Virus record (IMG/VR): IMGVR_UViG_2671181134_000012
Origin: a virus
Taxonomy: Duplodnaviria; Heunggongvirae; Uroviricota; Caudoviricetes
DNA: 7,995 bases
Direction: 5' to 3' (one strand)
The notes beneath the pieces were generated by a model, which made no database searches, was not told the origin of the DNA, and worked only from the letters and a program-made list of their open reading frames with translations. Shown here piece by piece: positions 1-7,995 of the stretch (the stretch's first letter is position 1; every line of letters begins with the position of its first letter). The translations under genes were made by a program, and so were the position numbers.

Positions 1-1239
1 ATGAGCAGGGCAATTCATAGACTTAGCGACACTCTTTTACGAAAATTAAGCGGATCACCAACCACAAAAAACACCTTTTTTAATGATGGTGGCAACCTTA
101 GCGTAAGGCATTCAACCAATGGCCTGTTAACCTGGTATTTCACTTACAGGGCCGGAACAGGCAGGAAGGTAGCCCCTGAACGTCTGAGGCTGGGAAATTA
201 TCCAGATTTGAGCCTGAAAGCAGCCAGGGAAAAAGCGTCGCAGTGTCGCGCCTGGCTTGCTGAGGGTAAAAATCCACGCCATGAGCTTAATCACACCGTA
301 CAGGAAGCGTTATCACCTGTTACGGTTAAGGAAGCGCTCACTTACTGGCTTGAATCGTACGCGAAGGAAAAGCGCACAGATTACGAATCTCTGAAAAGCC
401 GGATCAATACACACATAATCAGCCATATTGGTGCTATGCCGCTGGAAAAATGCGAGCTACGCCACTGGCTGACCTGTTTTGATCAGCTTGCTAAGCGTAA
501 TCCGGTATCAGCAGGATTTTTGTTACAGGTATGCAAGCAGGCGCTTAAGTACTGCCGCAAACGACGCTACGCAATTACCAACGTTCTAGATGATATGGTT
601 GTAGGTGATGTTGGGAAAAAAGCAGAAATAAGCGAGCGCATACTAACAAACAAGGAGCTTGGGGAATTACTCCGCGCCCTGGATGAAAAAATTTACCCAC
701 CGTACTACAGCGCCCTGATTCGCCTCCTGATTGTCTTCGGATGTCGTACCACTGAGCTAAGACGCTCTGAGGTCCAGGAATGGGATTTTAAAGAAATGCT
801 CTGGACCGTGCCGAAAGAACATAGCAAAACGAAGGTAGCAATATTCAGGCCAATACCGGAAGCGATCTTGCCGTTCGTAACGAAGCTGGTGGAGCAGAAC
901 AGGCACACGGGATTATTGCTCGGAGAACTGAAAGGGCAATCATCCGTATCAGAGTACGGAAGAACGGCACACAGACGTATTAATCAAGCCCCCTGGACGT
1001 TGCACGACATCCGGCACACGTTTACAACGATGCTGAACGATTTAGGCGTGGATCCTCATGTAGTGGAGCAGCTAACCGCGCACCAGTTGCCAGGAATGCA
1101 ACGAGTCTATAATCACTCCCGTTATCTTGATGCAAAACGTGACGCTCTTAATCTATGGGTTGAGCGTCTCGAGCTTCTCCAGAACAATGATGAAAAAATC
1201 GTTGTTATGACCCCGCGAATTTACTCCCAAAATTCTTGA
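1..1239 (+). CDS. int: Tyrosine site-specific integrase, P4-like (N-terminal arm-binding domain plus catalytic domain)
   Basis: 412-aa ORF starting at ATG 1. The N-terminal region (LSDTLLRKLSG...WYFTYR...GNYPDLSLKAAREKA) resembles the DUF4102-type arm-binding domain of P4-family integrases. The C-terminal region carries tyrosine-recombinase motifs (GCRTTELRRSE, HDIRHTF, and a candidate catalytic Tyr in RVYNHSRY). Family assignment is by recognition, not a search. Confidence 0.92.
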   Translation: MSRAIHRLSDTLLRKLSGSPTTKNTFFNDGGNLSVRHSTNGLLTWYFTYRAGTGRKVAPERLRLGNYPDLSLKAAREKASQCRAWLAEGKNPRHELNHTVQEALSPVTVKEALTYWLESYAKEKRTDYESLKSRINTHIISHIGAMPLEKCELRHWLTCFDQLAKRNPVSAGFLLQVCKQALKYCRKRRYAITNVLDDMVVGDVGKKAEISERILTNKELGELLRALDEKIYPPYYSALIRLLIVFGCRTTELRRSEVQEWDFKEMLWTVPKEHSKTKVAIFRPIPEAILPFVTKLVEQNRHTGLLLGELKGQSSVSEYGRTAHRRINQAPWTLHDIRHTFTTMLNDLGVDPHVVEQLTAHQLPGMQRVYNHSRYLDAKRDALNLWVERLELLQNNDEKIVVMTPRIYSQNS

Positions 1240-1248
1240 CAAATTACG

Positions 1249-1274
1249 GCTATTTTTCTTGCGAAAAATAGCCC
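1249..1274. repeat. Perfect 11-bp inverted repeat with 4-nt loop (GGCTATTTTTC ttgc GAAAAATAGCC), 10 nt after the int stop
   Basis: Read directly from the sequence. The stem is AT-rich and not followed by a T-run, so it is more likely a protein-binding palindrome or weak terminator than a canonical intrinsic terminator. Confidence 0.5.
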
Positions 1275-1283
1275 TCTAAAATA

Positions 1284-1316
1284 AATCGTCGAATATCGGC
1301 AAATATCGACGATTTA
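1284..1316. repeat. 10-bp inverted repeat AAATCGTCGA / TCGACGATTT separated by 13 nt, in the int-alpA intergenic region
   Basis: Read directly from the sequence. Candidate operator or recombinase arm site; function not determinable from sequence alone. Confidence 0.4.
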
Positions 1317-1648
1317 TATGTGTCAAGTATTGAAAAAATTTGAAATGTCTTCTTCTGAGTTCTTATTCTCTGTTTCTTGATTGTTCCAACACCTGATGGT
1401 TTATCTATTTGTTTTTAATGAGATAATTTAAGTGTAATACCAAATGACGACATTTTTTTGTTGCGTCGCTTAAAAACTCGTGACACGATTTTATGAACAG
1501 CAGCAAACTCTAGCGAACTTTGACGAACATAAAGTTCAGAAAGGTTACGTATTCAATTTAAGAGGTAAGAAAAGCTAGGAAGTAATATCTTTCCGTATAT
1601 CCACAGCGAAACAAAAATTTCTATACGTAATTTTATGTAGGACTTTTT

Positions 1649-1858
1649 ATGCGCGAAATAAATGAAGATCGTGTAATCCGCGAAAAAGAATGCAGAGAGC
1701 TAACAGGCGTTTGCCGCACAACTCGTTACGAGATGGAAAAGCAGGGCCGCTTCCCCTCACGTATCAGTCTCGGCGGTCGTTCTGTTGGCTGGGTTAAGTC
1801 TGAGGTTATGGAATGGGTTAAAAGCAGAAATCGTATTAATTCAGGTAAGGCAGCGTAG
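1649..1858 (+). CDS. alpA: AlpA-family phage transcriptional regulator / excisionase-like protein
   Basis: 69-aa ORF with AGGA 6 nt upstream of ATG 1649. The sequence (CRELTGVCRTTRYEMEKQGRFPSRISLGGRSVGWVKSEVMEWVKSR) matches the recalled AlpA hallmark pattern (FP..I.LG.R.VGW...EV..W). The position directly after a P4-type int is the usual one. Confidence 0.88.
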   Translation: MREINEDRVIREKECRELTGVCRTTRYEMEKQGRFPSRISLGGRSVGWVKSEVMEWVKSRNRINSGKAA

Positions 1859-1884
1859 GGGGAACATATGACACATAAAACAAA

Positions 1885-1904
1885 GGCGACCTGTGGCGGT
1901 CGCC
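1885..1904. terminator. GC-rich hairpin (GGCGACC tgtggc GGTCGCC) between convergent alpA and the minus-strand RHH gene; candidate bidirectional terminator
   Basis: 7-bp perfect stem with 6-nt loop. On the minus strand it is followed by a T-rich tract (complement of AAAACAAA at 1877-1884); on the plus strand the downstream tract is A-rich. It therefore looks better as a terminator for leftward transcription. Confidence 0.45.
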
Positions 1905-1992
1905 AATGGGAAAACACTAAACATAAGCCAGAACATCATAGCGATTTGCTGTCTGGTGGGCAATGTGCTCAGTGTGCTGGCTTGCTGGTGGG

Positions 1993-2172
1993 CTATTCCT
2001 GCTCTTTGGCCTTGCGGCGCTGGCGGCGTTTGATTTCGCCTTTAACGGCAGTAACTATAAATTGCGCTTTGCTTTCACCTTCATCTAAATTTTTTTCTAA
2101 GTCTGCAACAACATCATGCGGGAATCTGGCATTTAACTGTTGCGACTTATTATTTGTTGAACCTGTTGCCAT
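1993..2172 (-). CDS. Ribbon-helix-helix (Arc/MetJ/CopG-like) DNA-binding protein, 59 aa
   Basis: Minus-strand ORF; preferred start is ATG at 2172 (complement) with AGAGGA 7 nt upstream. The track start at 2211 is GTG. The translation (QQLNARFPHDVVADLEKNLDEGESKAQFIVTAVKGEIKRR) aligns by eye to Arc repressor (FNLRWPREVLDLVRKVAEENGRSVNSEIYQRVMESFKK). Basic C-terminal tail. Confidence 0.65.
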   Translation of the reverse strand: MATGSTNNKSQQLNARFPHDVVADLEKNLDEGESKAQFIVTAVKGEIKRRQRRKAKEQE

Positions 2173-2192
2173 TACTGAATCCTCTCTAAGTT

Positions 2193-2285
2193 GGTGCGAT
2201 TCAGTATACACAAAAAAAATTCAGAGAAAAGGCTTGAGGTGCGATTCACTTGCTGATAGGTTAAAAACAGATGGTGCGATGCACC
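2193..2285. promoter_or_regulatory. Three copies of GGTGCGAT in the divergent intergenic region (2193-2203 GGTGCGATTCA, 2238-2248 GGTGCGATTCA, 2273-2285 palindrome GGTGC-GAT-GCACC); candidate operator array
   Basis: Repeats read directly. Copy 1 lies between a candidate minus-strand -10 (TATACT, complement of 2203-2208) and the RHH gene's ribosome-binding site, which is the arrangement expected for autoregulation. Confidence 0.45.
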
Positions 2286-2362
2286 AAATAACAACGCCCC
2301 GCAGTGGTGGCACACATGCAGGGCGTCTAACAACCAACGATAGCAACAGTATCGAGGTAGCT

Positions 2363-2566
2363 ATGTTAAATCATACCACACACCCGCAAGGGCGGGACTC
2401 GCACAACCTGAATAAATACATCTGGCGTTTTATCGCCCTGAGCACGGCACAACCGCGCGTGATTACCATCGAGGCCACCAGCGAACAGGAAACGCGTCAG
2501 CAATCTCCTGATGGCTGCGTGATGGTATTCGCCGCCCGTATTCGTCAGGGGGTGTTCCATGCCTGA
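2363..2566 (+). CDS. Hypothetical small protein (67 aa), first gene of a three-gene cassette
   Basis: ATG 2363 is preceded by GAGG with a 5-nt spacer. It is in frame with a long upstream open frame (1868-2566) that I consider non-coding. An alternative in-frame ATG at 2279 would give 95 aa. The stop TGA 2564-2566 overlaps the next start (ATGCCTGA). Confidence 0.5.
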   Translation: MLNHTTHPQGRDSHNLNKYIWRFIALSTAQPRVITIEATSEQETRQQSPDGCVMVFAARIRQGVFHA

Positions 2567-2879
2567 CATGACCAATTACCAGTACCTGATTAATCCGCAT
2601 TTTAACTGTGAGCATGATATTGCTAAAAAAGTTTATTCCGCTGCGGATGGGGCTACTGACAATATATCAATGGGTATTGCGTCAATTGGTAGCCTGATGT
2701 GGCATGCGTCAGAAAATAAGGAATATGACGAAAAGACCATGCGCATTGATATGGGTAATATCGGTTTGTTACTGGCAATGCTTGGGCAGTTTGATATTTC
2801 GTTACGGTGCACCATTGAAAATGCCACAGATGCATTAAATGCTATAAAGAAAGCGAATACTGATTCAAATCGGGGATAA
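2559..2879 (+). CDS. Hypothetical protein (106 aa), second gene of the cassette
   Basis: ATG 2559 overlaps the stop of the upstream ORF (translational coupling), with a G-rich SD-like stretch upstream. The protein has ordinary globular composition and no recognised motif. An alternative start is ATG 2568. Confidence 0.6.
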   Translation: MPDMTNYQYLINPHFNCEHDIAKKVYSAADGATDNISMGIASIGSLMWHASENKEYDEKTMRIDMGNIGLLLAMLGQFDISLRCTIENATDALNAIKKANTDSNRG

Positions 2880-2885
2880 ATAATC

Positions 2886-3185
2886 ATGAGAACTTATTTA
2901 TCTGGCTTGACTGCCAGCGGTTATGCACACCCCAAAATTATCCCCGGCGCTATTTATCTGGATAAGAACGGTAACAGAGTAACGGTAAAAGAACTGATGT
3001 TTGACCGTGTGTATTTTATCCGTGATGGCTATTCATTTCATAGTTCGCTGAACGTGGAGATCTTTATTAGCAGATTCAGGCGGGAAATCCCGCTTTCCAG
3101 AAATAACCATGTGTCATGTATCGATGTTGATAAAAAACTACAGGAACTGAAAAACATGATTGCCGCGTGGAGAGAGCAGAAATGA
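2886..3185 (+). CDS. Hypothetical protein (99 aa), third gene of the cassette, directly upstream of the primase gene
   Basis: ATG 2886 with GGGGA 9 nt upstream. The stop TGA 3183-3185 overlaps the primase ATG 3182 as ATGA, a classic coupling arrangement. No recognised motif. Confidence 0.6.
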   Translation: MRTYLSGLTASGYAHPKIIPGAIYLDKNGNRVTVKELMFDRVYFIRDGYSFHSSLNVEIFISRFRREIPLSRNNHVSCIDVDKKLQELKNMIAAWREQK

Positions 3186-4999
3186 AAAAAGCGCCAAATT
3201 TAAAACACCAGCCACGTGACAAAATGACGGAAGTCATCATTTTTGCGGGTAGTGATGCGTGGGCACATGCGAAGCAGTGGCAGGAACAGGACGGGCGACT
3301 GGCTGGCGATAACGTGCCACCTGTCTGGCTTGGAGAGCAACAACTTGCCGAACTGGACAACCTGCAAATCGTACCGGACGGACGCTATCGCGTGCGTCTC
3401 TATCAGGCGGGGTTATTGAGTCCGGGGCTTGTTAATACCATCGGGCAGAAACTGGCAGTGGCAGGTGTCAGGGATGCTGATTATTACCCTGAAGGAATGC
3501 ACAGCCAGAAACGGGAGAACTGGCGCGAATATCTGGAACGTGAACGGGCAGAGCAGGCGGAAAAGAAAAAGGTAGTTGAACTGCCTGTAAAGAAAAAAGA
3601 GCGGGTAAAAGACGATAACGCTTCATCACTGGCGCTTAACCAGATGGGAGCAAGTCAACGCGGCGAAGTTCTCCTGGCACATTATGGCGGTGAACTGGCG
3701 ATTCATGCTGACTCTGACACTGTTCACTATTACAACGGCGTTGTATGGGAGCCAGTACAGGATAAAGAATTACAGCGAGCTATGGCACAGATTTTCATTG
3801 ATGCGGAGATCAGCTATTCGCAGAACGCCATTAAATCGGCGGTCGATACCATGAAGTTAAGTTTGCCTGTAATGGGGAATACAGCCCGTAACCTGATTGG
3901 ATTCAGTAACGGTGTTTTTGATACCCGGACAGGCGATTTTCGGGAGCATAACAAAAACGACTGGTTGTTAATTGCCAGTGAATTACCTTTCAGCCCACCA
4001 GCAGAGGGGGAAACGCTGGCAACACATGCGCCGAATTTCTGGAAGTGGTTACGCCGTTCGGTGGCTGAGAATGACCGCAAGGCGGATCGCGTACTGGCTG
4101 CATTATTCATGGTGCTGGCGAACCGGTACGACTGGCAGTTATTCATTGAGGTAACAGGTCCAGGGGGAAGTGGTAAAAGCGTGATGGCGGAGATTTGCAC
4201 CATGCTGGCGGGTAAGGCCAACACGGTATCGGCAAGCATGAAGGCGCTGGAAGATGCCAGGGAACGCGCGTTAGTGGTTGGCTTTTCGCTGATTATCATG
4301 CCGGATATGACCCGTTACGCTGGTGATGGCGCAGGAATTAAGGCCATTACAGGCGGTGACAAGGTGGCAATCGACCCGAAGCATAAAGCCCCCTACTCAA
4401 CACGCATTCAGGCGGTAGTGTTGGCGGTGAACAATAACGCCATGTCATTCAGTGACCGCAGCGGGGGGATTTCACGTCGTCGGGTGATATTCAATTTTTC
4501 GGAGGTTGTACCGGAAAACGAACGCGACCCCATGCTGGCAGAAAAAATAGAAGGAGAGCTGGCGGTTGTGATTCGCCACCTGCTTACTCGTTTTTCTGAC
4601 CAGGACGAAGCTAAACGCCTGCTGTATGAGCAGCAGAAATCAGAAGAAGCTCTGGTGATAAAACGCGAGGGCGATTCGCTGGTGGACTTCTGCGGCTATC
4701 TCATGTCGTCGATAATGTGTGATGGTCTGTTAGTGGGTAATGCCGAAATTATTCCGTTCAGTCCGCGCAGGTATCTTTATCACGCCTATCTGGCATATAT
4801 GAGGGCACACGGATTCGGTAAACCTGTAACACTGACGCGCTTCGGTAAAGATATGCCGGGGGCAATGGCGGAATATGGCAGGGAGTATATGAAACGGAAA
4901 ACGAAGCACGGTTTGCGTTCAAATGTGACCCTGACAGAGGATTCAGAAGACTGGATGCCATCATGTGCATCGGTCACAAATGACGATGGAAAAAATTAA
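3182..4999 (+). CDS. Replication initiator: P4 alpha-like primase/helicase (D5_N-like region plus SF3 helicase NTPase domain)
   Basis: 605-aa ORF from ATG 3182 (the track's 3167 start is GTG). It carries Walker A (TGPGGSGKS), a hydrophobic stretch ending in Asp (LVVGFSLIIMPDM) as Walker B, and the SF3 motif C asparagines (LAVNNNAMSF). This architecture matches the P4-family phage/plasmid primase C-terminal domain. A TGTTCACC iteron array lies immediately downstream. The N-terminal ~150 aa are not assigned. Confidence 0.85.
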   Translation: MKKAPNLKHQPRDKMTEVIIFAGSDAWAHAKQWQEQDGRLAGDNVPPVWLGEQQLAELDNLQIVPDGRYRVRLYQAGLLSPGLVNTIGQKLAVAGVRDADYYPEGMHSQKRENWREYLERERAEQAEKKKVVELPVKKKERVKDDNASSLALNQMGASQRGEVLLAHYGGELAIHADSDTVHYYNGVVWEPVQDKELQRAMAQIFIDAEISYSQNAIKSAVDTMKLSLPVMGNTARNLIGFSNGVFDTRTGDFREHNKNDWLLIASELPFSPPAEGETLATHAPNFWKWLRRSVAENDRKADRVLAALFMVLANRYDWQLFIEVTGPGGSGKSVMAEICTMLAGKANTVSASMKALEDARERALVVGFSLIIMPDMTRYAGDGAGIKAITGGDKVAIDPKHKAPYSTRIQAVVLAVNNNAMSFSDRSGGISRRRVIFNFSEVVPENERDPMLAEKIEGELAVVIRHLLTRFSDQDEAKRLLYEQQKSEEALVIKREGDSLVDFCGYLMSSIMCDGLLVGNAEIIPFSPRRYLYHAYLAYMRAHGFGKPVTLTRFGKDMPGAMAEYGREYMKRKTKHGLRSNVTLTEDSEDWMPSCASVTNDDGKN

Positions 5000-5010
5000 A
5001 CTTATGGAAT

Positions 5011-5241
5011 AACTGTTCACCACTGTTCACCCTGCAATAAATGTCTTTTATATCAGTATATTATAGGGTGAACAGTTATTTATGAACTGTTCACCAAACT
5101 ATTCACTGTTCACCTTTTTGATTCTTTATTGAGCTTTAAGGGTGAACAGTGGTGAACAGTTGGTGAATAGTTTTTGTGAAACTATTCACCCCTTAACATC
5201 ATGAATAAAAAGGGAAAATTGCAAAAGGTGAACAGGTGAAG
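5011..5241. repeat. Iteron array / candidate replication origin: at least 8 perfect and several degenerate copies of TGTTCACC (GGTGAACA) in both orientations
   Basis: Perfect copies on + at 5013-5021, 5023-5031, 5087-5095 and 5106-5114; on - at 5067-5075, 5141-5149, 5151-5159 and 5227-5235. Degenerate copies at 5162-5172 and 5180-5190. The 22-mer AACTGTTCACCACTGTTCACCC (5011-5032) is the exact reverse complement of 5140-5161. There are two inverted pairs with 7-nt spacers (5067-5095 and 5162-5190) and an AT-rich stretch at 5033-5066. Confidence 0.8.
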
Positions 5242-5286
5242 GGTTGAAATGCAAAAATTTTATTTTATTGCTGTGAGGTAAAGCCT

Positions 5287-5526
5287 GTGACAACGAAGCA
5301 CGCCAAAAAACCACAATCTCACGCCCTTGATTTGACAGAACACTGGCTGAGGGTGGCGATAAAAATCATCGACCGCAACGCCGGGGAAGGATACGCGAAA
5401 GCACATCCCGAACTGATAAGCGCATTCATGACCACGACGGCGGCAAACTTTGCCACGCTGACAGAACGGGAGATTGCCGAAGCGGAACAGGTAACAACCA
5501 TCAACGTTAAAAGCGCTGGAGAATAA
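5287..5526 (+). CDS. Hypothetical protein (79 aa, GTG start)
   Basis: GTG 5287 with GAGG 8 nt upstream, followed by an intrinsic terminator. The overlapping minus-strand ORFs have Cys/Ser-rich antisense-like composition, so the + strand is preferred. Confidence 0.5.
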   Translation: MTTKHAKKPQSHALDLTEHWLRVAIKIIDRNAGEGYAKAHPELISAFMTTTAANFATLTEREIAEAEQVTTINVKSAGE

Positions 5527-5544
5527 CCGAAGTAGTGAACACAT

Positions 5545-5568
5545 AGCCGGAGCAATCCGGCTTTTTTT
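5545..5568 (+). terminator. Rho-independent terminator (AGCCGG agcaat CCGGCT followed by TTTTTTT)
   Basis: 6-bp GC-rich stem, 6-nt loop and a 7-T run, read directly, 19 nt after the stop of the 79-aa ORF. Confidence 0.7.
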
Positions 5569-5602
5569 CGATCTCGCATATCTTAAAAAATGGTTGATTG
5601 AT

Positions 5603-5608
5603 TATAAT
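5603..5608 (+). promoter_or_regulatory. Candidate -10 hexamer TATAAT for the downstream small-ORF / terS / capsid operon
   Basis: Consensus TATAAT about 50 nt upstream of GTG 5657, with an A-tract upstream. No convincing -35 was found, so this is tentative. Confidence 0.3.
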
Positions 5609-5656
5609 CTATCGAAAATACTGATTATTAGATGATAAGCATCAGGAGGAAACAAA

Positions 5657-5851
5657 GTGGAACAGATAAAGCAAAGCGCTACCGTGATGATTGATCACGA
5701 GATCCTAAACGAGCTTAAAAAACTTCAATTCGATGTTATTCGCCGGATGAATGAAGCTGGTATATACGGCAGAGCCGCCACGCCAACAGTAGGCCATCTT
5801 GCTCGCGTGCTGTTACGCGAACGCCTGGGCATTGCAACAGGTGAGGAATAA
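5657..5851 (+). CDS. Hypothetical small protein (64 aa, GTG start), possibly DNA-binding
   Basis: Strong SD (AGGAGG, 5643-5648) 8 nt upstream of GTG 5657. The N-terminal segment (SATVMIDHEILNELKKL) has a strand-then-helix pattern that could be RHH-like, but this is weak. Confidence 0.5.
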   Translation: MEQIKQSATVMIDHEILNELKKLQFDVIRRMNEAGIYGRAATPTVGHLARVLLRERLGIATGEE

Positions 5852-5853
5852 CA

Positions 5854-6015
5854 ATGGCTATCACAGAACGCGAGGCAAGCATCATTAAAGCCATTGGCGA
5901 GGAAACAAGAGACACGATAGCGCCATTAATGGAAAAGATCGCAGAGCTTGAGAGACGAATAAACAAGCTGAGTGATGAAGTTGAAGGCCTGATCTCGTTA
6001 CTCGGTGAGCAATGA
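5854..6015 (+). CDS. Hypothetical small protein (53 aa), predicted helical / coiled-coil; absent from the supplied ORF track
   Basis: ATG 5854, 2 nt after the stop of the upstream ORF, with GAGGAA just upstream. The translation (MAITEREASIIKAIGEETRDTIAPLMEKIAELERRINKLSDEVEGLISLLGEQ) has heptad-like hydrophobic spacing. It is a short ORF, so coding status is uncertain. Confidence 0.4.
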   Translation: MAITEREASIIKAIGEETRDTIAPLMEKIAELERRINKLSDEVEGLISLLGEQ

Positions 6016-6070
6016 CAGGGGGGGAGTGTTCCGGCCGGAAAGTCGATCGCCCTGGACACCGCCCCCCGTC
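6016..6070. other. GC-rich structured element: G7 run (6018-6024), 12-bp palindrome TTCCGGCCGGAA (6029-6040), CGATCG (6044-6049), C6 run (6062-6067)
   Basis: Read directly. The G-run and C-run could pair to enclose the palindrome. It sits between the 53-aa ORF and terS; a cos/pac-type or regulatory role is possible but unproven. Confidence 0.4.
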
Positions 6071-6095
6071 TCATTCGTAGAAAATTTTGCTTTTC

Positions 6096-6121
6096 AAAAA
6101 AGTTACACGAAAAGTTACACC
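6096..6121 (+). repeat. Two direct copies of AAAAGTTACAC with 12-bp period in the terS leader
   Basis: AGTTACAC at 6101-6108 and 6113-6120, non-coding, 22 nt upstream of terS ATG 6143. Confidence 0.6.
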
Positions 6122-6142
6122 CCCTCAAAACGAGGTTTTTGC

Positions 6143-6631
6143 ATGGCATTAACGACCAAAAAAAAGCGGTTTGCTGATGCGTTATCAAGGGGCGCAAATC
6201 CCACGGAAGCCGCTATACATGCGGGATACAGCGAAAAGACCGCAAGGGTTAAAGGCTGGCAGCTATCCAATGATCCTGAGGTGAAAAAGTATCTTAAGGC
6301 TGTAACTTCTGATGTAACTTTTCAGGTTACAAAACCGAAAAAAGTTACAAAGAAAGTTACCGAAAAAGTTACACCGGAACGGGCATCAATTAACACCATT
6401 GAGATGATGGATAACGGCCTACCCGACCCCATCAAAGCAATGGGCAGGATACTGATTGACAACATGGACACAGATCCAAAACTGGCTTTAGATGCCGCGT
6501 TTAAGCTGGCCCAGTTCACCCACCGCAAGATCGGCAGCATTGGGAAAAAAGAGGTTAAAAAACTCAATGCCGCTAGTGTCTCCTCAAATCGGTTCCCCAT
6601 CCCTAAGCCACCAACAGGCTTAAGACACTGA
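6143..6631 (+). CDS. terS: Terminase small subunit (SF6 G1P-like, Terminase_2-type N-terminal HTH)
   Basis: ATG 6143 with GAGG 6 nt upstream. The N-terminus (KKKRFADALSRGANPTEAAIHAGYSEKTARVKGWQLSNDPEVKKYL) closely resembles the SF6-like TerS DNA-binding domain (KQERFIEEY...NATKAAIAAGYS...A). A Lys-rich repeat linker (KKVTKKVTEKVT) follows. Confidence 0.82.
   Translation: MALTTKKKRFADALSRGANPTEAAIHAGYSEKTARVKGWQLSNDPEVKKYLKAVTSDVTFQVTKPKKVTKKVTEKVTPERASINTIEMMDNGLPDPIKAMGRILIDNMDTDPKLALDAAFKLAQFTHRKIGSIGKKEVKKLNAASVSSNRFPIPKPPTGLRH
6300..6375. repeat. 12-bp periodic AGTTAC array inside terS: inverted copies GTAACT at 6302 and 6314, direct copies GGTTAC 6325 and AGTTAC at 6343, 6355 and 6367
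   Basis: Read directly. The period equals that of the upstream leader copies. It is encoded as an xxVT peptide repeat (AVTSDVTFQVTKPKKVTKKVTEKVTP). Confidence 0.6.
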
Positions 6632-6642
6632 GGTATCGAACT

Positions 6643-6804
6643 ATGAGCGAATACATCACAGACCCTATTGATGTACTCACGGAAATCATGAACGACAAGC
6701 AGCAGCCAACCGAAATACGGTTACAGGCTGCCGCTGTTCTGATGCCATATTTTCACGAAACCCTAACCCCATGTTACCAGGAGGAAGAAGATGATGATTT
6801 CTAA
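6643..6804 (+). CDS. Hypothetical small protein (53 aa) with acidic C-terminus (QEEEDDDF); absent from the supplied ORF track
   Basis: ATG 6643 with GAGG 9 nt upstream. Its 3' end overlaps the capsid gene start by 14 nt. Short ORF, uncertain. Confidence 0.4.
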   Translation: MSEYITDPIDVLTEIMNDKQQPTEIRLQAAAVLMPYFHETLTPCYQEEEDDDF

Positions 6805-7717
6805 AAACATGAAAGGCGTGTCGGCAGTTCGCGCCGCCAGCGTGCTTACATCGTGTAAATTCAGCCATGCAGACGCAATTGAAATGACGAAAAAAAATGA
6901 TCCGGCAGTATCGAAATTTCTTGAAAAATCCATCGTCAACAGAATGACTACGGATAACATGCCGTCGCTGGTGGCAGAGCCGATAGTAAGAGAGCTTGGC
7001 GAGTATATTTTTTCGCAGTCTGTACCAGGCAAGCTAATCAGCAGCGCGCTGAATCTTCCTTTTGGCGCAAAATTGCAGTCAATATCAGGCAAGGGTAGTA
7101 AATGGCTTAAAGAAGCCGAAGAAATCCCAATCAAAGAGGGAGAAGTAAACGAAAGCGCGCTAAAACTGTGCAAACTCGGCGCTATTGTGATGCTGAATAA
7201 CGAGCTAATCAAATTTAGCACCCCTGGTACCAATTCAGCGATCAGAGACTTAATCACATCGGAATCGGTGAAAGAAATAGATAAAAAATTTCTTTCCAGT
7301 GACCAGGAGGTGGCTGGCGTATCCCCTGAGGGTGTGCTTAATGGTGCTGATGAGGCCGAAAACTTCATAGAGCTTTTCAAAAAGCACATAGCGAACGGTA
7401 ACACGCTTTCCACGTCGTCGCTAATCTTGCCCGTAGAAAACGCCTTACAGCTTACTGATGCTGAGTTCTGGCAGATAGAGCTTTTGAGAATACCGGTAAT
7501 TGTGAGCGAACAGGCTGATCGCATGATGCTGATAGACGCTCAAAAGCTGATTATTAACGTTGAAGCCACGGTTATAACCCCAACTGATGAGGCGGTAATA
7601 AAAACCGAATCAGGGGCGGTTAGCCTTTTCCAGAATGACGCTACAGCGTTCAGGGCAATCACCTATTGCGGATGGCAAAAACTCGATAAGGCCGTCACCG
7701 TTCTGGCGAAAAGCTGA
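6791..7717 (+). CDS. Putative major capsid protein, HK97-fold (Phage_capsid-like), 308 aa
   Basis: AGGAGG (6779-6784) 6 nt upstream of ATG 6791. The central region (KLGAIVMLNNELIKFSTPG...IDKKFLSSDQEVAGVSPEGVLNGADEAENF) aligns by eye with the HK97 gp5 region (IAHWVQASRQVMDDAPML...GLALKEEGQLLNGDGTGDNLEG). Its size fits a capsid core without a delta domain. Not confirmed by any search. Confidence 0.6.
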   Translation: MMISKNMKGVSAVRAASVLTSCKFSHADAIEMTKKNDPAVSKFLEKSIVNRMTTDNMPSLVAEPIVRELGEYIFSQSVPGKLISSALNLPFGAKLQSISGKGSKWLKEAEEIPIKEGEVNESALKLCKLGAIVMLNNELIKFSTPGTNSAIRDLITSESVKEIDKKFLSSDQEVAGVSPEGVLNGADEAENFIELFKKHIANGNTLSTSSLILPVENALQLTDAEFWQIELLRIPVIVSEQADRMMLIDAQKLIINVEATVITPTDEAVIKTESGAVSLFQNDATAFRAITYCGWQKLDKAVTVLAKS

Positions 7718-7734
7718 TTTTTCCGGCATCAATC

Positions 7735-7758
7735 CAGATATGGTGATCCCCATATCGG
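7735..7758. repeat. Imperfect hairpin (GATATGG tgatcc CCATATC) downstream of the capsid gene
   Basis: 7-bp stem and 6-nt loop read directly, with no clear T-run. Weak terminator or operator. Confidence 0.3.
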
Positions 7759-7797
7759 GATAATTACGAAATTTTCGCAGTTTAATAGGTGACCAGA

Positions 7798-7995
7798 ATG
7801 ACAGAAGCCGAAAATTATGTGCGTGTTGTTGCTGAGGTGATGCGCCGTGATGGTATCCAGCTTAATGATGTGGATATGCGCAACATACGGATCCGCGTTC
7901 TTGAAATGCTGGCCTACCGTCGCCGCGTGCAGACGTACAGGGAAAAAGCAAAAATTACGTACCACTGGAAGAGGCAGGAGCGGTTACGGCGGTAA
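7798..7995 (+). CDS. Hypothetical small basic protein (65 aa), Arg-rich C-terminus
   Basis: ATG 7798 with AGGTGA 7 nt upstream (the track start 7789 is GTG). The stop TAA is at the last three bases of the window. Translation: MTEAENYVRVVAEVMRRDGIQLNDVDMRNIRIRVLEMLAYRRRVQTYREKAKITYHWKRQERLRR. Confidence 0.5.
   Translation: MTEAENYVRVVAEVMRRDGIQLNDVDMRNIRIRVLEMLAYRRRVQTYREKAKITYHWKRQERLRR

Follow-up and report, generated by a model that had tools for sequence, protein, structure and literature searches.

Two inverted P4 ori-like iteron modules as the probable replication origin of a Gram-negative phage-inducible chromosomal island

The replication origin of Gram-negative phage-inducible chromosomal islands (PICIs) is described as sets of iterons located immediately 3′ of the pri-rep gene (Fillol-Salom et al. 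2018, ISME J, PMC6092414). In the same study, a pri-rep-ori fragment of the island EcCICFT073 drove plasmid maintenance, deletion of rep or ori abolished or reduced this maintenance, and rep together with the downstream array alone sufficed for replication; EcCIRM13514 appears there as one of the four Pri-Rep alleles in Figure S10. In its accessible text, the study regards the homology of Pri-Rep to the alpha protein of satellite phage P4 as distant and treats PICIs and P4 as independently evolved. That P4 alpha is related to the SF3 helicases has been stated elsewhere (PMC2777425).

In P4, ori is located 2.3 kb upstream of alpha, and its iterons (9310-9413) are spaced at 10, 11, 22, 43 and 10, forming a module of three direct, one inverted and two direct sites at fixed spacing. 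The crr cluster directly follows alpha and consists of two direct 120-bp repeats, each with only part of the six-site module. The iteron octamer, TGTTCACC, is what we take to be the binding site of the alpha protein. The original prediction had named this octamer as the repeat of P4 ori and crr, and the P4 record indeed annotates it as 'ori type 1 repeat' in both.

The DNA analysed here (the window, 7,995 nt) belongs to a small integrated element, and all genes in the window point rightward. Pfam matches on the + strand identify a tyrosine integrase (1-1239), an AlpA regulator (1649-1858), a DUF4222 gene (PF13973, 2886-3185) that overlaps the start codon of the initiator gene (ATGA), a small terminase, terS (6005-6631), and a major capsid protein (6791-7717). 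Near-identical copies are found in E. coli chromosomes between cspD/yljB and clpS. The 11-bp att core ATGATAGTTAT is present at both ends (11817 and 20727 of locus L003), delimiting an element of 8.9 kb (L003 11817-20737). Table S1 of PMC6092414 gives this core and the cspD-clpS site for the PICIs EcCIIHE3034 and EcCI18098; the island of the window is not itself among the published entries. Judged by its sequence, the element is an 8.9-kb Gram-negative PICI, because int, alpA, unidirectional genes, an att core at both ends and a published integration site occur together, in keeping with the PICI pattern of int, alpA, rightward genes, a specific att site and a length of about 8-12 kb. A P4-like satellite was considered and rejected in view of the PICI gene content and the published PICI att site, and Pfam detected none of the P4-like satellite genes sid, psu, delta and epsilon among the ten main ORFs. 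A truncated capsid-forming PICI, in which the island would end after the capsid gene, was also rejected, since both att cores are present; the published 9.3-kb EcCI11128, which has the same packaging module, further counters this reading.

Comparison of the whole window (1-7995) with L088, L090 and L091 shows the island to be a mosaic, with int/att resembling EcCIIHE3034, the replicon resembling EcCIRM13514, and terS/capsid resembling EcCI11128. EcCIIHE3034 carries a TGTCTACC replicon and EcCI11128 carries a RepA-family initiator, and different replicon alleles occur among the islands at this one att site. The DUF4222 gene precedes the initiator gene in all five annotated PICIs inspected (EcCICFT073, EcCIIHE3034, EcCI042, EcCI11128 and the excised circle NZ_CP148328.1), alpha-like and RepA-family initiators alike, suggesting that its product is a conserved replication accessory protein. 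The ORF at 1868-2566 (232 aa) has a match to an Icd-like cell-division inhibitor (NF033153) that is confined to its last 45 residues; relatives annotate a 67-aa gene and an oppositely oriented YlcI/YnfO gene at this place, and the 232-aa ORF is probably not the real gene.

The original prediction had placed a dense array of at least eight perfect octamers, together with degenerate copies, right after an alpha-like gene, and this arrangement is borne out. The array starts 12 bp past the stop codon (4997-4999) of the alpha-like gene and comprises 12 sites, eight perfect and four degenerate. Nine perfect copies of TGTTCACC occur on both strands of the whole window, eight of them within 5014-5234, against an expectation of 0.28 per window, and none of 200 dinucleotide-preserving shuffles reaches nine; the remaining copy, isolated within the gene at 4426, is at chance level. 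The degenerate sites comprise two copies of TATTCACC, with one mismatch, and the weaker octamers TATTCACT and CCTTCACC, which were identified by eye and by script.

The array consists of two inverted copies of a six-iteron module, with the layout 2-1-3 | 3-1-2. Module A (5011-5115, + strand, sites 5014-5114) has its sites at 5014 (+), 5024 (+), 5067 (−), 5088 (+), 5100 (+, TATTCACT) and 5107 (+), with start-to-start gaps of 43 bp between 5024 and 5067 and 21 bp between 5067 and 5088. Module B (5140-5242, annotated on the + strand) has its sites at 5141 (−), 5151 (−), 5162 (−, TATTCACC), 5183 (+, TATTCACC), 5227 (−) and 5235 (−, CCTTCACC), with gaps of 21 bp between 5162 and 5183 and 44 bp between 5183 and 5227. 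The reverse complement of module B is 66% identical to module A, and the two modules flank a central AT-rich spacer (5116-5139), defined by the iteron map, with a pseudo-dyad centre at about 5128. Sites within the triples and doubles are about one helical turn apart, and the intervals of 21-22 and 43-44 bp correspond to about two and four turns. As to symmetry, no mismatch occurs in either of the predicted inverted pairs with 7-nt spacers (GGTGAACAGTT-ATTTATG-AACTGTTCACC at 5067-5095 and GGTGAATAGTT-TTTGTGA-AACTATTCACC at 5162-5190), and the predicted 22-bp inverted repeat (5011-5032/5140-5161) is perfect and one base longer, spanning 23 bp (5011-5033/5139-5161). The inverted repeats on which a nested arrangement had been proposed are thus exact, but the array as a whole is better described as two inverted six-iteron modules.

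Each module is colinear with the six type 1 repeats of P4 ori. Against the reverse complement of P4 ori 9304-9420, module A reaches 70% identity (shuffled sequence: mean 48%, maximum 56%), and its sites agree with those of P4 in order, orientation and spacing; module B is 66% identical to P4 ori 9310-9413. The octamer is identical in the two systems, as is the 9-mer CTGTTCACC. The module that P4 ori contains once is therefore present twice here, in inverted orientation, and both halves of the array fit the full six-site P4 ori better than they fit P4 crr. As aligned, the array corresponds in position, 3′ of an alpha-like gene, to P4 crr, and in architecture to two P4 origins arranged head to head.

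The gene preceding the array, pri-rep (3182-4999, + strand), encodes an alpha-like initiator of 605 aa with Pfam matches to D5_N, DUF5906 and Pox_D5, and its ORF is intact. From N- to C-terminus, the protein has a TOPRIM-like domain, a D5_N and SF3 helicase core, and an origin-binding domain of the winged-helix type. Its residues 150-605 align at 50% identity with the SF3 helicase and origin-binding domain of P4 alpha (residues 320-776), and the origin-binding domain (aa 502-598; 4685-4975, + strand) matches the solved P4 origin-binding domain (PDB 1KA8_A) with E=3.2e-24 in phmmer. The Zn-ribbon/primase part of P4 alpha is absent, a Pfam search of the first 160 aa gave nothing at a threshold as loose as E<=10, and in the alignment with alpha both the catalytic glutamate and the DxD motif of the P4 primase are replaced; from this we infer that the N-terminus is an inactive TOPRIM remnant. 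The name 'DNA primase' appears to derive from a match to TIGR01613, 'primase C-terminal', which covers the helicase. Within the origin-binding domain, the stretch YMKRKTKHGLRSNVTL covaries with the iteron sequence. This stretch, located after the last helix, is the presumed beta-hairpin wing; its position is taken from the sequence order of a winged-helix domain, because the AlphaFold single-sequence model of the domain (pLDDT 37) was unusable.

The AT-rich stretch anticipated by the original prediction is also present. The array is 65% A+T, compared with 54% for the window, and a nearest-neighbour stability scan places the least stable 25-mer of the whole window at 5041-5065 (−23.7 kcal/mol; window mean −33.2, sd 3.1). 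This 25-mer lies in the AT-rich spacer of the 43-bp interval of module A (5033-5066), which is a candidate DNA-unwinding element; module B likewise has AT-rich spacer DNA within it. The central spacer (5116-5139), poorly conserved in sequence among orthologues and conserved in length, is an alternative candidate site of melting or helicase loading. Furthermore, the AT-rich 3′ flank of the array (5243-5274, TTGAAATGCAAAAATTTTATTTTATTG) contains a stability minimum at 5244-5268 and, in the 13 aligned orthologous arrays, is kept across genera as TATATTTTTTAATTTTAT; a second unwinding element is one possible role, and upstream signals of the next gene are another. That gene, a conserved 79-aa ORF (5287-5526, + strand), directly follows the array, has a terminator-like hairpin on its 3′ side (5545-5562), and has a homologous N-terminus readable in EcCIRM13514. 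A search for DnaA boxes within 2 kb of the array was negative, the array itself lacks GATC, and no Rfam family matched in the window.

The compact arrangement is widespread. In a survey with one genome per species, 80 loci with alpha-like genes (L004-L083) were collected from Escherichia, Klebsiella, Citrobacter, Raoultella, Kluyvera, Pectobacterium, Serratia, Xenorhabdus, Photorhabdus and other genera. In about 70 of the 80, a single array of about 215 bp, mostly of TGTTCACC or TATTCACC, lies directly past the stop codon of the alpha-like gene, and a search of the 5-kb flanks of all 80 loci for a second cluster found a clear one only in P4, with L081 a weak case. The compact array looks like the common state of the family, with P4 as the exception, because 58 loci that keep a true P4-type primase domain nevertheless have a single array. 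An alignment of 13 orthologous arrays, drawn from several genera, has 59% invariant columns in the iterons and 27% in the spacers (Mann-Whitney p=5e-11), and the spacer lengths are kept while the spacer sequences drift, a pattern that marks the iterons as being under purifying selection across genera.

Four of the surveyed loci (L080, L081, L082 and L083) encode the alpha proteins nearest to P4 in the primase domain (52%) and have no array right after the gene. One of them, L081 from Pantoea sp., contains a small TGTTCACC-like cluster on each side of alpha (1961-2121 and 7662-7787), which may be a P4-like division into ori and crr.

Nine loci contain other octamers (TGTCTACC, TGTCTACT, TCTCCACC, TGTCCGCC, TATACACC, GTATACAC and GTGTTCAT), and most of these loci keep the 2-1-3 | 3-1-2 layout, most clearly L012, L015, L017, L076 and L078, as does EcCICFT073. 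In the same loci, the origin-binding domain differs mainly after the last helix, in the presumed wing. The TGTTCACC users, including P4, share K-x-x-[TS]-K-x-G-[ILV]-[RQ]-[ST]-N, and one group of TGTCTACC users (L007, L012, L015 and L020) has a GPDKGR insertion in the presumed wing. L077 and L078 differ at 5 of their last 115 residues, two of them at the presumed wing tip, and have the octamers GTATACAC and GTGTTCAT, respectively. This covariation between iteron and domain is the strongest sequence-based argument available that the origin-binding domain reads the octamer, and it supports the conserved DNA-binding specificity that the original prediction had proposed. Natural specificity switches, with arrays just past the alpha-like gene, are observed in L007, L012, L015, L017, L019, L020, L076, L077, L078 and L085.

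The most direct comparison is with the characterized PICI origins. The initiator of EcCICFT073 is 48% identical to that of the window over its full length, N-terminal domain included, and the array that follows it shares the 2-1-3 | 3-1-2 layout but is built from TGTCTACC. The initiator of EcCIRM13514 is 86% identical, and the TGTTCACC sites of the window array recur there in unchanged order. In view of this orthology with an origin that was found to replicate a plasmid, and of the similarity of each module to P4 ori, we consider it highly probable that the array at 5011-5242 is the replication origin of the 8.9-kb PICI and that 3182-4999 encodes its initiator, as the original prediction had proposed for this fragment. 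The shared EcCICFT073 layout and the EcCIRM13514 initiator with its TGTTCACC array also mean that published work already covers the origin type and, very probably, this iteron; a search of published full text for TGTTCACC matched primer sequences only.

Since the iterons that directly follow alpha in P4 are those of crr, which assists replication in cis and is not the start site, the array might instead be a crr-like enhancer, with initiation elsewhere in the island or dependent on a second site as in P4; the P4 crr repeats even share a '+ 43 bp - -' sub-module with the array of the window. We consider this unlikely. A second, crr-like octamer cluster, raised in the original prediction for the remainder of the element, is found neither in the window nor in the complete 8.9-kb element (L003 11817-20737), and the octamer at 4426 does not rise above chance. 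The better fit of both halves to the six-site ori argues in the same direction, as does the sufficiency of EcCICFT073 rep and its downstream array for replication (PMC6092414). A mainly regulatory array, which would control transcription into the packaging genes or set copy number through pairing of arrays ('handcuffing'), with a secondary origin role or none, is in our estimate very unlikely. With no terminator detected between the initiator gene and the array, and with 45 bp between the array and the next ORF, an operon transcript must cross the array; some genomes, moreover, contain up to six similar arrays, as would suit pairing. However, there is no sigma-70-like promoter on the + strand between 4800 and 5700, the layout is that of the validated EcCICFT073 origin and of P4 ori, and any regulatory role would come in addition to that of an origin and would not be a substitute for it.

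Lower still is the probability we assign to a packaging (pac/cos) signal for the small terminase of the island, or to a decayed relic without function. The island does encode its own small terminase and major capsid protein, and repeats are typical of pac sites, but the octamer covaries with the DNA-binding domain of the initiator. It tracks the initiator allele and not the packaging genes, which makes a packaging role unlikely; EcCI11128 combines this terS and capsid module with a RepA-family initiator. A better pac candidate is provided by AAAGTTAC, which is repeated seven times within terS (6099-6372). A relic, in turn, is at odds with the selection on the iterons across genera and with the intact initiator ORF. 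The AAAGTTAC repeats comprise six perfect copies and one with one mismatch, at 12-bp spacing, with two direct copies (6099, 6111), two inverted copies (6302, 6314) and three direct copies (6341, 6353, 6365); the rest of the window contains no perfect copy, and these repeats are a candidate pac site or small-terminase binding array.

Of 5426 complete E. coli genomes, 668 (about 12%) carry the 276-bp origin region at >=80% coverage, and none of them has it annotated; the assignment of the array as the origin would therefore supply a precise origin annotation for a common satellite. With 5000-5275 as query, up to six matching places were found per E. coli genome, so that one cell can harbour several satellites of a single iteron type, which raises the question of cross-activation or incompatibility. 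A circular 'plasmid' of 10,790 bp, NZ_CP148328.1 (L086), starts exactly at the att core ATGATAGTTAT, carries int, alpA, the DUF4222 gene and an alpha-like initiator gene, and has an array 94% identical to that of the window; from its gene content and ends it is identified as a complete excised PICI deposited as a plasmid. The record is consistent with an excised, possibly replicating form, although it could also have been assembled from excised DNA that does not replicate. The sequence of vB_KppS-Ant, a relative whose iterons are the same, came from an induced lysate.

With the array taken as the origin, initiation can be pictured as follows. Upon induction of the island the initiator would be made, and its C-terminal winged-helix domain would bind the TGTTCACC iterons, whose twelve sites would act as two inverted six-site modules, each equivalent to P4 ori. 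One helicase hexamer may assemble on each six-site module, as the number of sites and the analogy with other SF3 initiators suggest, and the inverted orientation of the modules would yield two opposed helicases. Melting would take place in one of the three AT-rich candidates (5033-5066, 5116-5139 or 5243-5274), and bidirectional theta replication of the excised circle would start at the melted spacer. Priming would probably depend on host DnaG, since the TOPRIM-like domain lacks the catalytic acidic residues of the P4 primase.

The basic published picture of PICI origins is left unchanged by these results. What may be new is the match of each half-array to P4 ori, the common occurrence of the compact array, the covariation of presumed wing and iteron, and the TOPRIM-like N-terminus of the initiator. 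P4 and Gram-negative PICIs, usually treated as unrelated, share a replicon module down to binding site and geometry, and the iteron and wing variants offer ready specificity mutants for the reading of origins by SF3 initiators and for cross-activation or exclusion between satellites. A more far-reaching interpretation, which we put forward tentatively and consider less likely than not, is that the two-module palindromic array is ancestral to alpha-like replicons and loads one hexamer per module, that P4 crr is the split version of this arrangement, and that the presumed wing is a fast-switching code that defines replicon specificity groups. Under this interpretation, the need of P4 for a distant crr would be a two-module requirement that has been split. 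Cross-firing or titration of origins could then occur between P4-like satellites and the PICIs of the TGTTCACC group, which about 12% of complete E. coli genomes contain.

The locus can finally be placed among known origin systems. Iteron plasmid origins of the RepA/pi/TrfA type have direct repeats of about 17-22 bp and DnaA boxes beside an AT-rich region, and the array, with sites of 8-11 bp in both orientations, is of another kind. For the SaPI origins of Gram-positive PICIs, likened here without sequence comparison, the analogy is functional only. SaPIs encode their primase in a separate gene. The presence of a primase besides the helicase-type initiator in SaPIs is documented (PMC7145576). 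The PICI of the window resembles P4 in the homologous helicase and winged-helix domains of its initiator and in the conserved presumed wing motif, K-x-x-T-K-x-G-[IL]-x-[ST]-N. It differs from P4 in several respects: P4 has one ori module and two crr direct repeats 4.7 kb apart, whereas two ori-like modules lie adjacent and inverted here, so that a single cluster in the whole element replaces the bipartite ori and distant crr, both of which P4 needs in cis; the Zn-ribbon and active DnaG-type primase domain of P4 alpha contrast with the TOPRIM-like domain without catalytic E and DxD here; and the accompanying genes are PICI genes (terS, capsid, alpA).

SV40 large T and papillomavirus E1 are likewise SF3-helicase initiators with their own origin-binding domain, and act at palindromic origins. 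The likeness lies in the SF3 initiator and in inverted binding sites around AT-rich DNA, and by analogy suggests that two opposed hexamers are loaded at the PICI array; the differences are four sites in those origins as opposed to twelve here, and a DNA-binding fold that is a winged helix here. Closest of all are the Gram-negative PICI origins, which share with this locus the position immediately 3′ of pri-rep, the two iteron sets around AT-rich DNA (here the two modules around 5116-5139), the homology of the Pri-Rep alleles, and the type of island.
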